A stretch of DNA of 64,000 nt, from NCBI GenBank assembly GCA_963745705.1, contig CAVUYL010000011.1:8535-72534 (forward strand), written 5' to 3'. A program made the translations under genes and the position numbers. This DNA is from an uncultured Gammaproteobacteria bacterium. GTDB taxonomy: Bacteria > Pseudomonadota > Gammaproteobacteria > Steroidobacterales > Steroidobacteraceae. The notes beneath the pieces are model-generated. The model did not search any database. It saw only the letters and a list, made by a program, of their open reading frames with translations, and was not told where the DNA came from. Below are positions 50,708-56,823 of the stretch, one piece after another (within the stretch, counting starts at the first letter, position 1; every line of letters starts with the position of its first letter).

Positions 50708-51745
50708 TCAGGCAAGCGGCAGATTGTGCGGCCGGACCAGCAGGTGCCAATCTTGGTGCTCCTCCAAAATCAGCGCGATCGCCGCCTCGATCGCGGCCTT
50801 GAGCGCAGCGACGTCGCCGGCGGAGACGCTCTCATCGAGCGCGGTGCGAATGCGCGTCATCGCGTCCTGCAGATCGGCGACCAGGCGTTCCGAGGTGGTG
50901 CCGAGCCGATAGGATTCGGATTGGGCGAGCGCGCCGTGCAATGATGCGCCGAGCGCCGGGAAAAAAGTCGTTATCACCGACAGAAAAAACGTATGCACGA
51001 TGAGGTGCAGCAGCGCACCGAGTGCCGTCAGGCCGAACAGAGCGCTGTTCATGACATGCACCCGATGGCGCAGCGCGTGGTGCTTGCTCGCGATGCGGTA
51101 GTGATAGTGGCGCTGCTCGTCGAGAATGTCGATGGTCCACTGCGCGTAGCTCGAGACGAACTTGAGGTCCGACCAAGCGTCGAGCAGCAGCCCCCGCGCC
51201 AGCGGCTCGTTCTCTGCGCAGAGCGCAGCCACGTCGTCCGCGCTGCGCACGTGCTGGCCAGGATCGAATACGCGCAGATACCAATTCGTGGCGCTCGCCG
51301 GCGCCGAAAAATCCAGCAAGGGCGCGAGCATGGGCAGATACCAGCTCAATTCCGCGGTGGTGCGTGCGCTCAGCCATTGCGCCTGCCAGTCGCAGCGGTG
51401 ACCGCGCCAGTAAATCGCGCTCACGGTGCCGATCACCATGACTTCGCCGACCGCCCACAATCCCGCGAAGGGATGCAGCATGTGGTTCGAGCTGTCCCAG
51501 CCGAGCGCCAAGGGCATGACGGCGAACAATACGGCAACCGCGCTCAGCAGATAAATCGCCCAGAAGCCGCTGCGGTAACGGTTCCCATAGAGCATGGCGC
51601 GCTCATCGAACCGCCGGTGCGGGCCGGCAATGGCCTCGATGAGCGGCACTAGCGCCGCCGGTGCCTGGGGCACGGGGGCCGGCGGCAGGGTTTGAACATG
51701 AGCGCCGATCAATAACAGCCGCTGAACGAAATTATGCAGCGCCAT
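50708..51745 (-). CDS. 4-TM membrane protein with two SLATT-like (2TM plus helical) modules
   Basis: Module 1: YGNRYRSGFWAIYLLSAVAVLFAV / LWAVGEVMVIGTVSAIYW followed by WLSARTTAELSWY. Module 2: QRHYHYRIASKHHALRHRVHVMNSALFGLTALGALLHLIV / FFLSVITTFFPALGASL followed by a helical tail. The ATG lies 1 nt after the PGDYG stop. The SLATT call is pattern-based only. Confidence 0.7.
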   Translation of the reverse strand: MALHNFVQRLLLIGAHVQTLPPAPVPQAPAALVPLIEAIAGPHRRFDERAMLYGNRYRSGFWAIYLLSAVAVLFAVMPLALGWDSSNHMLHPFAGLWAVGEVMVIGTVSAIYWRGHRCDWQAQWLSARTTAELSWYLPMLAPLLDFSAPASATNWYLRVFDPGQHVRSADDVAALCAENEPLARGLLLDAWSDLKFVSSYAQWTIDILDEQRHYHYRIASKHHALRHRVHVMNSALFGLTALGALLHLIVHTFFLSVITTFFPALGASLHGALAQSESYRLGTTSERLVADLQDAMTRIRTALDESVSAGDVAALKAAIEAAIALILEEHQDWHLLVRPHNLPLA

Positions 51746-51746
51746 G

Positions 51747-52250
51747 TCAGTCGACGATTTCATAGGTCGTGGCAAAGATGGGCGTGGAAACGATCCCGAG
51801 ACTGCCGTCGCCATAGTCGACCAGCCATTCGCCCGGAACCCCGCTCAAGCGCGATACCCCATCGGCGAGCAACACCTCGAACGGCACCGCCATGGGCACC
51901 GCCATGATGCGATTCGGCAGGCTGATATAGCGCCCCGACTGGCCGGCGACGGTGGGCGGCACGGGGCGGTATTTGTCGGGAAACCGTGCGCGGGACACAC
52001 GCCAGTGCTCCCCCGCGGTGCCGGTGATGATGGCATCGCCGGGCGCCGCATGCACCTCGCCTTCGGAGGTCTTCACGGTGCAGGCGACCGGCGTGAAGCG
52101 CACGTCGATTTCACGTTCCAGCTTGCGCGCAAAGACGCGCCGCGGATCGGCGCTGATCTCGTTCGAGTAGCCGCGATGCCCGCTCGAACGAAACAAAGGC
52201 ACCTGCCCGGCGTTCACCCTCGTTGCGCCGCCGAAATCAGGCCGCGCCAC
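51747..52250 (-). CDS. PGDYG-domain protein
   Basis: The eponymous motif region GVPGEWLVDYGDGSLGIV. The in-frame GTG at 52217 overlaps the NTPase stop (GTGA); the ATG at 52250 would overlap it by 37 nt. Confidence 0.85.
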   Translation of the reverse strand: MARPDFGGATRVNAGQVPLFRSSGHRGYSNEISADPRRVFARKLEREIDVRFTPVACTVKTSEGEVHAAPGDAIITGTAGEHWRVSRARFPDKYRPVPPTVAGQSGRYISLPNRIMAVPMAVPFEVLLADGVSRLSGVPGEWLVDYGDGSLGIVSTPIFATTYEIVD

Positions 52251-55200: not shown

Positions 55201-55441
55201 GCAGGCGCGGCGCGAGCCCGGCGCGTAGGATCGAGGTCTTGCCCAGGCCCGACTGGCCGAACAGCACGGTGAGCAGCTTGCGCTGCACCCGGCGCGCGAG
55301 TTCGGCGACCTCCTCGTCGCGCCCAAAAAAGTATGCGCGGGTTTCCTCCGTGAAGGAGGCCAATCCCAGCCAGGGATTGCGTTCATCGACCGTGGTCGCC
55401 GCGGCATCGCTCGCGGACACGTAGCGCGGCTGCGCGTTCAT
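52214..55441 (-). CDS. membrane-anchored nSTAND-type P-loop NTPase with a long helical-repeat (TPR-like) C-terminal region
   Basis: NPWLGLASFTEETRAYFFGRDEE signature, Walker A GQSGLGKTS (55232-55258) and Walker B LLIFDQFEE. A single TM helix IAIGCTALAIGALVAAVFAYF (54032-54094) is followed by about 600 aa of helical repeats. The ATG at 55441 overlaps the upstream stop (ATGA). Confidence 0.9.
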   Translation of the reverse strand: MNAQPRYVSASDAAATTVDERNPWLGLASFTEETRAYFFGRDEEVAELARRVQRKLLTVLFGQSGLGKTSILRAGLAPRLRSQGYCPVYVRIDYGKESPEPAEQIKQAISRTARRSGQWTQAGVAVEGESLWEFLHHRDDVLRDESGATLIPLLIFDQFEEIFTLAQSDEFGRARAARFIDELADLAENRPPKSLEAKLDEDDSGAERFDFARGDYRVLVALREDYLAPLEGLKKVMPSISQNRLRLAPMTGEQALAAVLLPGKRLVTEEVAAAIVRFVAGGAELAHAEVEPSLLSLICRELNDTRIAQGRDEISLDLLAGSHASILSNFYERSLADQKPAVRQVIEDELLTASGFRENIAEERLLSRFQAVGAAPDALATLVNRRLLRIEERLDVRRVELTHDVLCGVVKSSRDLRRERESREATERLLAEQGARELTARRALVRARQIAIGCTALAIGALVAAVFAYFSTQRAHRAELEARQTRAVSEQARMQAEQLLGYLTDDFVRELQSFGRLDVIGEFAKRQVDYFHALPPALKDTQTIRNGALAMVQYARVMRSVGKLKASSATDAEALQLLEHLRREGDNSEATTIALALGYSVQAQIYDNNNDPAGPAAGKRAADLLRPLAEAPKASAAARRAYVEVLVRIAFEQQAANQNDDSVRTAEQAMRLAETLGARDLSNIDMAADYAEGGAWLVSALSNLGRNEEARRRGVDALGIADKVLEKRPGYRLALHAEQIIEADLAQVASNDLSPKDALQSGQREVQIGQALLTLDPENVVSMNNMGVAHQGVGDALWSMGRVREAIPWYLKCLDDFGRAAGAGGTGFVIIHGYAVAQTAVHQAQIGDAAGAAATIASGEPFLAKLRRSEPPGSMAVSMLDGLQQLPAAGTAFEADDFADAQRLARNNARDMEATKPNGGLEESQKYISLFVGYHVEGRADYMLGDFAAAEHAERASMEARKRTPIEAVSDRRDVGELSTWLAMAISRQGRTAEAAQVIAPVVTFQRELAAKNHGDYWQTVEFAAALYAQALNDPQRSSLLLREAAAKIDALPAAMRELHDVRLWRGLISAAQRG

Positions 55442-56823
55442 GACCCGCGAGCCTGCATGAAGTCCTTGAGCCGCCGCGCGAACTCGGGGGGCACTTGTCC
55501 GCCCGGCAATTGCGAAAAATGCAGCGCTTTGAATTTGTCGGGCACCAGCGCATCGGCCGCGTTGGTGGCGTCGATGCTCACCGGCAGAATGAACAATGCG
55601 CCGTCGGCCATGTTGCGCACCCGATCCATGGCATAGCTCCATTCGCGGCGAAAGAAGCCCTCGAGCCGCCGCTGCGTGGCGGCCGAGACCACGGGTATGA
55701 AATACGAGCAGCGCGCAATATTGCGCTGAATCTTTCGGTCGTAGTCATCGCCGACTTCCAATCGGTCGATGTCGAACCAAGTGACGATGCCGGCCGACTC
55801 GAGTCCGGCCTTGATCGCCTGCACCGCTGCCAAATCCTCGCGCGCGTAGCTCAAGAAAACGGCGTTGTCCGGCATTTCGCGCGCCGGCGGCGCAAAGCGC
55901 ACCATGGCGGGCACCGCGGCCGCGGCGGCCGGCTTGCGGCGCGCCTGCCAGCGCCGGTGCAGTTCCTCGACGAAGCGCTCCGCCCCCACGTAGATCCGGG
56001 TGCGGACGCTGACCTGCTGCAGGAAGGCGACGAGGCGATCATCCTGGCTGCTGTGATCGTCCGCCAGCACCTCGCCTACATCGCGTGGGTCCGACAGTCG
56101 TTGACGCTTGGCCATGCGCAGAAACAAGCGCGCCAGCCAATTGGTGAAATTACTGCCGATGAACAGCAGATGATTGTGCTCGAGTTCATGAAACAGCTTC
56201 TCGGGCGCCAAGTGCTCGCTCTGCAGCGCGCAGATGTACTCCAAGAGATCCTCATCCGAGATGACGTAGGTGGGCGAGGCGGAGACCTTGCCGAACAAGT
56301 GGTAGACGACCGGCCGCTGCAGGCGATCCCGCTCGGTGGGCAGATCGGTGACGCGATTGGGTGCGTAGGACAGCACGTCCGTCGAGGGCGCGCCGTTGAA
56401 GCGCTCCAGGTTGATCGCCGTCTCGAGCAAGGGATCGAAGGTGGTGGAGACGAACAGGTCGAAATCGGTGATCGCCGCCAATTGCCGCAGCGCCGCCGGC
56501 GGTTCGAAATTGGCATCTTTGATGATGCCGCGCAGGCGGACGTACGCCTCTTCGCGCCGTCCGCGCGCCGACAGGAACCAGCAAATCACGTCATTGAGCG
56601 TATAGGGCTGCGGCAGCTCGGCAATGTTGACGTTGAGCCGTCCCGCCAGTTTCTCGGCGACCCAGTCGAGCAGCAGGCGCGGACCGCGCTCGGTCGACAC
56701 CAACAGGAGTTCGGGCCCCACGATCGGGATGACGCGGCGTTCCTCGATGTAGCTCAGCAAATCGTCCCATGCATCATCATCGAGCGTGCTCATGGGTACG
56801 GCAGTAGCCGAGGCAGGACTCAT
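55438..56823 (-). CDS. SIR2-like (SIR2_2-type) and TIR domain fusion protein
   Basis: SIR2_2-like motifs IPIVGPELL, STTFDPLLETA, VVYHLFGKV...YVISDEDLLEY and LLFIGSNF (about 55969-56766). C-terminal TIR VFLSYAREDLAAVQAIKAGLESAGIVTWFDIDRLEVGDDYDRKI...YFIPVVS...GFFRREW (about 55549-55872). The longer 794-aa ORF is rejected because its extension is antisense to the acyltransferase gene. Confidence 0.88.
   Translation of the reverse strand: MSPASATAVPMSTLDDDAWDDLLSYIEERRVIPIVGPELLLVSTERGPRLLLDWVAEKLAGRLNVNIAELPQPYTLNDVICWFLSARGRREEAYVRLRGIIKDANFEPPAALRQLAAITDFDLFVSTTFDPLLETAINLERFNGAPSTDVLSYAPNRVTDLPTERDRLQRPVVYHLFGKVSASPTYVISDEDLLEYICALQSEHLAPEKLFHELEHNHLLFIGSNFTNWLARLFLRMAKRQRLSDPRDVGEVLADDHSSQDDRLVAFLQQVSVRTRIYVGAERFVEELHRRWQARRKPAAAAAVPAMVRFAPPAREMPDNAVFLSYAREDLAAVQAIKAGLESAGIVTWFDIDRLEVGDDYDRKIQRNIARCSYFIPVVSAATQRRLEGFFRREWSYAMDRVRNMADGALFILPVSIDATNAADALVPDKFKALHFSQLPGGQVPPEFARRLKDFMQARGS

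Follow-up and report, generated by a model that had tools for sequence, protein, structure and literature searches.

The window studied here is a stretch of 64,000 nucleotides from an uncultured gammaproteobacterium of the Steroidobacteraceae (assembly GCA_963745705.1, contig CAVUYL010000011.1), and it carries on its minus strand, between positions 50708 and 56823, four consecutive open reading frames (ORFs), confirmed by the ORF listing and by reading of the strand, which we refer to as genes A to D and jointly as the cassette. Gene A (55438..56823, 461 amino acids (aa)) encodes a SIR2-like + TIR protein, gene B (52214..55441, 1075 aa) a transmembrane nSTAND1 NTPase, and gene C (51747..52217, 156 aa from an in-frame GTG) a PGDYG protein, all three assigned by Pfam; gene D (50708..51745, 345 aa) encodes a protein with four transmembrane (TM) segments in two SLATT-type modules, assigned by TM scan and family profiles. 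The genes are packed exactly as the first-pass annotation of this DNA had described: the stop codon of A overlaps the start of B in ATGA (55438-55441), the stop of B overlaps the GTG start of C in GTGA (52214-52217), and C and D are joined through TGA-c-ATG (51743-51749). A longer form of C beginning at a GTG at 52250 is possible; relatives begin at the position of 52217. Across related loci the A-B junction is overlapping in 27 of 33 (median -4 nt), the B-C gap is at most 20 nt in 32 of 38 (median -4 nt) and the C-D gap at most 20 nt in 104 of 106 (median 6 nt), so that the junctions are no local accident, and the translational coupling proposed for the four genes is supported here and elsewhere. 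Promoter and terminator scans gave nothing above chance. Between D and the TonB receptor gene lie small ORFs that we left out of the system, since they are unconserved elsewhere.

We surveyed loci carrying relatives of D and A (numbered L..., with their proteins numbered P...), including metagenome contigs besides genomes. The same gene order with tight junctions occurs in more than 30 genomes or metagenome contigs, and four or more different sets of flanking genes surround it. The 120 best relatives of D, and likewise those of A, all come from Steroidobacteraceae or soil gammaproteobacterial assemblies. Three long contigs (L001, L002 and L116) hold the same four genes in the same order and share one flank, with genes for a P450, an AMP-binding/PP-binding protein, a Zn-peptidase and a lipid-A acyltransferase; their opposite flanks differ. 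Identity of these three loci to the window is 90-91% for A, 80-88% for B, 81-84% for C, 76-80% for D and 79-88% for flanking genes. Over 32 cassettes, mean identity to the window is 85% for the SIR2-like domain, 83% for TIR, 84% for the NTPase, 67% for the TM-linker, 67% each for C and D and 49% for the tail of B, A being the most conserved cassette protein (72-91%, 32 loci). Pairwise ratios of nonsynonymous to synonymous divergence (dN/dS), which are rough values with dS near saturation, are 0.07-0.11 for A, 0.06-0.16 for the NTPase domain of B, 0.11-0.29 for its tail, 0.11-0.20 for C and D and 0.06-0.23 for flanking genes, and all four genes are under purifying selection. The four genes form a genuine, closely packed operon that is conserved among soil Steroidobacteraceae.

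Both domains originally read in protein A are recovered by Pfam, as SIR2_2 (E 1.2e-12, aa 123-249, 48.6 bits against a cut-off of 24.5) and TIR_2 (E 2.3e-17, aa 322-433). Alignments of homologues place the SIR2-like domain at aa ~20-300 (55924..56766), and Pfam together with alignment to solved TIRs places the TIR domain at 55525..55860. Sirtuins, like ThsA, carry three hallmark motifs, namely the GAGxS NAD (nicotinamide adenine dinucleotide) loop, the catalytic Asn in TxNxD and the catalytic His in xHG. An alignment of 42 homologues of A gives the invariant motifs VIPIVGPELL, STTFD130 and YH175LF177G, so that at GAGxS, TxNxD and xHG the family of the window protein shows GPELL, TTFD and HLFG, in a comparison that is a motif reading against the known sirtuin motifs and not a tool alignment to a solved SIR2. 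The distant homologue of P. caribensis shows TMTCD at TxNxD and LYMFG at xHG, and His175, which had been put forward as the candidate residue of the SIR2 domain, is a Tyr there. Searches by sequence or profile reached no solved SIR2 for this part of A, returning TIR matches only, and an AlphaFold2 (AF2) model built with 30 close homologues has a mean pLDDT (predicted local distance difference test score) of 46, with values below 50 in the SIR2-like domain, too poor for a fold search. By motif, all three sirtuin hallmarks thus appear altered and the TxNxD/xHG/GAGxS signature of SIR2 NADases (types ThsA, DSR and SIR2-HerA) is not found in A; the SIR2-like domain is probably not a canonical NADase, and a regulatory, binding or assembly role seems more likely for it.

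The TIR domain of A aligns to those of PdTIR (3H16), TcpB (4LZP) and AbTIR (7UWG) at E values of 1e-4 to 4e-3. The position of its catalytic Glu is ambiguous by alignment: with HMMER/MAFFT against PdTIR/TcpB it falls on Ala398, which would mean that it is absent, and this placement requires a 7-residue insertion and a 1-residue deletion, whereas Glu394, the residue originally proposed, is preferred by the aromatic-x-x-x-Glu rule and by its spacing from strand C; it lies in F390-x-x-x-E394 in the window and is conserved as Y-x-x-x-E in P. caribensis. Glu394 therefore stands under one alignment and not under the other, and the TIR domain may be active. Models from PADLOC match only the generic TIR/SIR2 parts of A, those for ThsA and ThsB weakly (ThsB1, E 1.7e-5). 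These observations bear on the earlier description of A as an NAD-degrading or signal-generating effector, and on a reading in which it would be a terminal NAD+-depleting effector, as are ThsA, DSR and Avs-SIR2, with the SLATT protein as a parallel second effector. Such a role would fit the SIR2_2 match above the Pfam threshold, the TIR_2 match and the weak ThsA/ThsB matches; against these stand the three altered sirtuin motifs, which are invariant in their altered form, the loss of His175 in the distant homologue and the ambiguous TIR glutamate. With the canonical motifs missing, NAD depletion by the SIR2 domain is doubtful, and we regard the reading as a whole as quite improbable. A SIR2-like domain that is very strongly conserved but degenerate in its motifs is a candidate pseudo-enzyme or new-chemistry domain, and is the system's oddest feature.

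Protein B matches Pfam nSTAND1 (E 2.9e-34; aa 23-432, 54146..55375), as do all 15 of 15 relatives, and both its Walker A motif (GQSGLGK68TS, with the Lys68 named at first reading) and its Walker B motif (LLIFDQFEE) are intact in sequence. A single strong TM helix is predicted at aa ~447-470 (54032..54103; 19-residue Kyte-Doolittle score 2.4), between the NTPase and a C-terminal region of ~600 aa, and it lies at the same position in every full-length B homologue scanned, including the distant P. caribensis protein. The C-terminal region, or tail (aa 471-1075, 52217..54031), is TPR-like: the window protein gives only sub-threshold TPR matches, and 4-5 of 15 relatives have matches with E values down to 1.6e-9. 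Of the membrane nSTAND-TPR protein first described, the nSTAND1 domain and the one TM helix are thus clear in the window, and the TPR part shows in some relatives. Since the single helix follows the NTPase, the tail is predicted to be periplasmic if the NTPase is cytoplasmic. PADLOC models gave zero matches for B at E values up to 1, the Avs family models included, and Pfam scans of A and B reported neither an effector-associated adaptor (EAD) nor a Death-like family.

The tail is the fastest-evolving part of B, with a minimum identity to the window of 26% among the 32 cassettes. By analogy, sensors of the NLR (nucleotide-binding domain, leucine-rich repeat) type show this pattern, in which a repeat tail evolves fast while the switch that bears it is conserved. 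Its divergence could also reflect relaxed constraint, which is conceivable because its dN/dS is below 1. The GC content at third codon positions (GC3) of the tail (window 52217-53881) is 0.73, against 0.81-0.86 in the rest of the cassette and in flanking genes; codon selection may have been relaxed there, or the sensor region may have been exchanged by recombination. Two loci (L003:3235-9559 and L103:743-7104) hold two tandem STAND paralogues in the order A-B-B'-C-D, with NTPase domains ~48-53% identical to that of the window B and strongly diverged tails, as if the sensor repertoire had been duplicated.

Hydropathy places the two TM pairs of protein D at aa ~60-113 and ~232-275. Its C-terminal half (aa 209-333) matches SLATT_1 below the cut-offs of both Pfam (E 0.0017, 18.8 against 26.3) and NCBIfam (2e-5, 24.5 against 41). 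When 1.84 billion representative proteins were scanned, D proved to have 709 relatives, and among 19 diverse full-length relatives SLATT_1 matches 13 (best 2.5e-8) and DUF4231, which we take to belong to the SLATT clan, matches 11, with SLATT_3 or SLATT_4 matching a few; the SLATT-like assignment thus holds at the level of the family, the window protein itself being sub-threshold. In relatives of ~600 aa the first 2-TM module is DUF4231/SLATT_3 and the second SLATT_1/SLATT_4, and two of these relatives reach the DUF4231 gathering score. The two halves of D show no similarity to each other detectable by hhalign, so D is best read as a tandem of two different SLATT-type modules, and a recent tandem duplication of one module was rejected on the same ground; the doubled SLATT of the first-pass annotation is sustained as two SLATT-type 2TM modules and not as a recent doubling of one family. 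The ~300-aa N-terminal domain of the ~600-aa SLATT relatives was considered as a SLOG domain and not called, with one weak SLOG-family match in one member.

The assignment of C to PGDYG (PF14083) is firm, at E 1.6e-19 and 70.6 bits against a cut-off of 27. Within the protein a PGD unit of ~27 aa is duplicated (hhalign E 7e-6), its two copies reading PGDAIITGxxGExWxVSxxxFxxKY and PGEWLVDYGDGSLGIVSxxIFAxTY. Sequence and profile searches detected no relatives of PGDYG among solved structures, and an AF2 model of C from two sequences has a pLDDT of 40, too poor for a fold search. Three independent kinds of evidence link PGDYG to the SLATT protein: their constant adjacency, their fusion in single proteins (P0123, P0124, P0128 and P0178), and a rearranged operon on plasmid p1 of Caballeronia sp. 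Lep1P3 (L119, NZ_CP084267, 3229-8412), a mobilizable megaplasmid. That operon encodes, in order, a TIR protein (488 aa), a 17-kDa-antigen-like lipoprotein, a trypsin-like peptidase, a 649-aa DUF4231-annotated tandem-SLATT protein and PGDYG. It shares with the cassette the presence of TIR, tandem SLATT and PGDYG in one operon, the SLATT and PGDYG genes overlapping by 4 nt, and differs in that the STAND and the SIR2-like domain are absent, PGDYG comes after SLATT, a peptidase and a lipoprotein are included, and the SLATT protein has an extra ~300-aa N-terminal domain. This operon is apparently undescribed.

PGDYG genes also occur in more distant settings. The distant fusion P0178 (metagenome contigs L083-L086, 6823-18023), for which a homologue search returned P0178 alone, lies among conflict-type genes, next to a TPR-S/MAP3K_TRAF_bd gene, with FGE-sulfatase fragments, an nSTAND1+FGE-sulfatase gene 3.7 kb downstream and two radical-SAM genes further upstream. 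On a Ralstonia solanacearum megaplasmid (L120, CP047139, 7941-11118) a lone PGDYG gene (Pfam 1.5e-49) has no recognisable SLATT neighbour; it lies next to a hipBA toxin-antitoxin pair and converges on a hypothetical gene of 283 aa. There are 134 Ralstonia records overall. Phage records hold no PGDYG relative at E 1e-3.

A one-genome-per-species scan with an alignment of the D family found relatives in 199 genomes, and in the best 80 of these 199, which we analysed, C and D are adjacent almost throughout. A and B lie directly upstream, in full or near-full form, in 24 of the 80; in 3, a contig edge leaves no more than the 3' end of B, 2 (L025 and L064) keep SIR2/NTPase remnants, 46 lack A-B, and 5 were left unclassified in this respect. 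Two loci (L028 and L042) have the window's own left flank and yet C-D only, and at another (L117, 8001-13140) the cassette is decayed, with B truncated and D lost. Truncated or split copies of A or B are also seen in decaying cassettes at L025:8984-9984, L064:9020-9421, L077, L050 and L020, some of which have SIR2/NTPase remnants directly upstream of an intact PGDYG gene. In a neighbour-joining tree of D, cassettes bearing A-B are scattered over the whole tree, including its deepest branches (at ~50% identity in D), and the largest group lacking A-B is one clade with a different synteny. The simplest reading is that the four-gene cassette is old and that A-B has dropped out of it several times. 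PGDYG and SLATT form the core of the cassette and A-B has been lost repeatedly, so that the single four-gene unit originally described resolves into two separable modules, with C-D alone in 46 of 80 species genomes and A-B alone in P. caribensis MBA4 (L121, NZ_CP012748, 5416-10929). The P. caribensis pair (31-35% identity) keeps the 4-nt ATGA overlap and the TM helix, has a short ectodomain that is not TPR-like, and follows genes for a TPR-S/MAP3K_TRAF_bd protein and for an M15 cell-wall peptidase. Further cassettes lie on metagenome contigs (L088, L089, L091, L095, L103 and L112), and in L112 A-B is found upstream of a match to the fused-type (PGDYG-SLATT) query.

This separability raises the question of whether the two halves exchange any signal. 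They could be independent neighbours, with A-B a self-contained nSTAND1 system and C-D a separate membrane toxin/regulator or sensor/effector pair, as the occurrence of C-D alone in those 46 genomes and in several other contexts, its purifying selection without A-B and the solitary pair of P. caribensis would suggest. Set against this, most cassettes have a B-C junction of -4 or 0 nt, which is kept down to ~50% identity in D, every A-B in the D- and A-anchored samples lies directly upstream of C-D or its remnant, and the triad of TIR, SLATT and PGDYG recurs independently in Caballeronia; we consider independence unlikely.

Other genes accompany C-D where A-B does not. In the A-B-less clade (L004, L008, L013, L016, L018, L022-L024 and ~25 more), C-D comes directly after a kinase cluster that lies ~5-9.4 kb upstream of the match and comprises genes for an extracytoplasmic function (ECF) sigma factor, a Ser/Thr kinase-TM-TPR protein of 908 aa and a secreted Ysc84/SYLF protein, with sometimes a fourth gene of ~300 aa (cluster 70) before PGDYG, by eye like a SAM (S-adenosylmethionine) hydroxide adenosyltransferase. 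The kinase-TM-TPR layout parallels NTPase-TM-TPR, though no similarity is detectable between the B tail and the TPR region of these kinases. At nine loci (L040, L053, L061, L066, L067, L069, L076, L080 and L094; e.g. L053:7814-9346) C-D has next to it, on one side or the other and with or without A-B, a pair formed by a Tll0287-like + HAMP membrane protein and a small TIR_2 protein of ~220 aa whose RRE motif is of the catalytic type. It is possible that this pair is an alternative input to the same output module. One metagenome-assembled genome (MFD01716.bin.1.190; L069 and L075) has two PGDYG+SLATT pairs in different contexts, neither with A-B.

For the flanks of the cassette we used the gene table of a contig (L118) that is 99.5% identical to the window over 45439-64000. 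The absence of integrase or tRNA borders reported at first reading holds, with no tRNA in 30-64 kb of the window and no Pfam match to an integrase or transposase within 10 kb by that table. The flanking genes are metabolic or envelope genes, with no defence or mobile genes nearby. GC and GC3 of the cassette equal those of the flanks, the GC3 of the B tail excepted. Of the features of a defence island (defence or mobility neighbours, patchiness and odd composition), we find only a patchy distribution, and that for the A-B half; the first-pass annotation had proposed to check the conservation of the four-gene neighbourhood, which we see in the same order at more than 30 loci, and its occurrence in defence islands, which these flanks do not bear out. 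Because its composition is flank-like, its position syntenic and its rates housekeeping-like, with no tRNA or integrase, the cassette is a resident, vertically inherited locus and not a foreign, recently acquired islet; the first-pass annotation had spoken of a chromosomal islet. On the plus strand at ~45640-47040, beside the TonB-dependent receptor gene (47029-49281), lies a BlaI/BlaR-like pair (Penicillinase_R repressor and Peptidase_M56 sensor-protease), and beyond it a catalase gene.

A setting of this kind would suit a non-immune role in envelope signalling in Steroidobacteraceae, in which the periplasmic tail would sense a cue and regulate membrane permeability or physiology through PGDYG and SLATT. 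Vertical inheritance, fixed synteny beside lipid-A acyltransferase and metabolic genes, flank-like GC3, housekeeping-like dN/dS, the lack of defence or mobile genes nearby, the degenerate catalytic motifs of A and the position of C-D after an ECF sigma / Ser-Thr kinase-TM-TPR cluster in the A-B-less clade are all in keeping with it. However, TIR, SIR2_2, nSTAND1 and SLATT are overwhelmingly conflict-system domains in the literature cited here, A-B is repeatedly lost or decayed, the tail is highly variable, paralogous copies occur (L069/L075), and distant contexts have conflict-type neighbours (TPR-S/MAP3K_TRAF_bd, nSTAND1+FGE and HipBA), so that we hold this role to be somewhat less probable than the independence of the two halves.

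The reading we prefer, at a probability of roughly 45%, is that the cassette is a two-module conflict system of the cell-suicide or abortive-infection type, with STAND-gated, Thoeris-like signalling from TIR to SLATT. The first module would be an NLR-like switch, made of the membrane-anchored ATPase B with its variable, periplasmic TPR-like tail as sensor and of A as its effector or adaptor, split off as a coupled upstream gene; the second would be a membrane effector, the tandem-SLATT protein D, with C as its cytoplasmic partner (receptor or gate). A cue would bind the tail of B, which would oligomerise with ATP and so cluster A; clustering would activate the TIRs, which would convert NAD+ into an ADP-ribose-derived signal or else recruit C directly; C would pass the signal to D, which would open or assemble in the inner membrane, leading to depolarisation and to cell death or arrest. 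The anatomy of the cassette with its domains, its coupling, its modularity, its co-conservation and its evolutionary rates are observed; the topology, the direction of signalling, the TIR activity, the role of PGDYG, the formation of a pore and the immune purpose are all inferred here. As background, STAND proteins are described as oligomerising (PMC7159879), and SLATT proteins are predicted to be pores gated by nucleotide or ADP-ribose (ADPr) signals, encoded beside TIR genes (PMC7159879, PMC9503650).

Several lines of evidence favour this two-module conflict system. The domain calls are joined by the conserved A-B-C-D order and tight junctions, by the range of flanking contexts and by the spread of cassette loci across the D tree. 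The PGDYG-SLATT fusions are of the Rosetta-stone type, with a match to the fused type downstream of A-B in L112; the Caballeronia operon brings TIR, SLATT and PGDYG together independently, and nSTAND1 occurs near the distant PGDYG-SLATT fusion. Divergence is much quicker in the sensor-like tail (49% mean identity) than in the NTPase and the effector (84-85%), and A-B is repeatedly lost or decayed, as expected of costly accessory genes. The literature adds the gated SLATT pore, the cyclic ADP-ribose (cADPR) signal of type VII Thoeris, and nSTAND1+TM+repeat proteins with split TIR effectors. Other observations weigh against it. C-D persists under purifying selection where A-B is missing, so A-B is not needed for it, and the distant A-B pair of P. 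caribensis does without C-D; the cassette lies outside defence islands and mobile DNA, is syntenic, and evolves like its housekeeping flanks, and viral contigs hold no relatives of A or D. The dN/dS of the tail, being below 1, does not demonstrate diversifying selection, the sirtuin hallmarks of A are altered, and by the HMMER/MAFFT alignment to solved TIRs its TIR lacks the canonical catalytic Glu. A periplasmic sensor is also unusual for phage sensing.

We compared the cassette with described systems. One of the closest is type VII Thoeris, in which the TIR protein ThsB acts with the SLATT effector ThsH through a canonical cADPR signal (bioRxiv 10.64898/2025.12.03.692087). Both encode a TIR protein with a SLATT-family membrane effector, and the route proposed above, from a TIR-made, ADP-ribose-derived signal to SLATT assembly and membrane failure, would be the same. 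Unlike in type VII Thoeris, the TIR here shares its polypeptide with a degenerate SIR2-like domain and is coupled to a STAND NTPase that spans the membrane, and the SLATT protein is a 4-TM tandem form that has no soluble sensor domain and is accompanied by a separate PGDYG; Thoeris has two genes without an NTPase switch, against a four-gene cassette with an nSTAND1 NTPase between TIR and SLATT. Thoeris TIRs produce a cADPR isomer or His-ADPR when phage triggers them, and Thoeris effectors join a domain that binds the signal to one that kills (SIR2-SLOG, or SLATT in type VII). The cassette holds a SLATT-type effector and no recognised ligand-binding domain, PGDYG being a candidate only. The supplements of that study (bioRxiv 10.64898/2025.12.03.692087) hold no PGDYG, nSTAND1 or DUF4231 entries, and the study also records TIRs in Avs.

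The catalogue of Kaur, Iyer, Burroughs and Aravind (2021; PMC8195603) lists 412 nSTAND1+TM and 22 nSTAND1+TM+TPR entries, separate upstream effectors split off without adaptors (e.g. 'TIR+DrHyd-> nSTAND1+TPR' and 'TIR+TIR-> nSTAND1+BetaPropeller') and, in its supplement, a 'SLATT+SLATT' architecture beside TIR-containing ternary systems; SIR2+TIR effectors and PGDYG are absent from it. As in that catalogue, B is an nSTAND1 NTPase whose effector is a split-off upstream gene, and the cassette differs from nSTAND1 systems with an effector fused N-terminally or linked by an adaptor in that its effector is encoded by a separate coupled gene. Avs/AVAST and NLR-like STANDs share with it an effector, a STAND NTPase and a repeat sensor, and SIR2 effectors are known on STAND proteins of the Avs type; PADLOC Avs models, by contrast, miss B, and the cassette has a separate effector polypeptide, a sensor predicted to lie outside the cytoplasm and a second, membrane-effector module. 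SLATT proteins reportedly occur, in work by Burroughs et al. in 2015, in nucleotide-signalling systems (SMODS/SLOG/CBASS 2TM effectors), with which the cassette has in common a D protein of the SLATT superfamily, as a tandem SLATT+SLATT; D differs in having no fused SLOG, SAVED or other soluble sensor, PGDYG as a constant partner, and a DUF4231/SLATT_3-type half followed by a SLATT_1/SLATT_4-type half.

No PADLOC model matches B, C or D, so that a known system would not be called from these models. Literature searches, with many subscription papers outside their scope, found neither the cassette, nor a SIR2-like+TIR effector, nor any mention of PGDYG. The first-pass annotation had found no described system in which to place the locus; this stands for the whole cassette and for PGDYG and not for the parts, which are catalogued (nSTAND1+TM+TPR, split effectors, SLATT+SLATT and type VII Thoeris), and the cassette combines known parts of bacterial immune signalling in a new way without being a new kind of system.

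A bolder reading is that the cassette is an 'outside-in' bacterial NLR, in which a membrane STAND would respond to something in the periplasm, for instance phage entry machinery, cell-wall damage or a toxin that targets the envelope, and would signal through a remodelled SIR2-like/TIR protein to PGDYG, itself a new receptor or gate for SLATT pores that would act through a new NAD-derived ligand or by direct protein contact without NAD consumption. We offer this as a speculative and unlikely proposal. If it were true, PGDYG+SLATT would be a free-standing output module, with STANDs, small TIR proteins and possibly kinase/ECF pathways as inputs. The most useful lead is that the uncharacterised PGDYG gains a concrete, testable role as a partner of SLATT membrane effectors. 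The cassette presents a natural case of a TIR-to-SLATT output under a transmembrane STAND switch, which would extend Thoeris-like signalling to NLR-type and possibly extracytoplasmic sensing, in a system that is abundant in soil Steroidobacteraceae and hence ecologically widespread though absent from model organisms.

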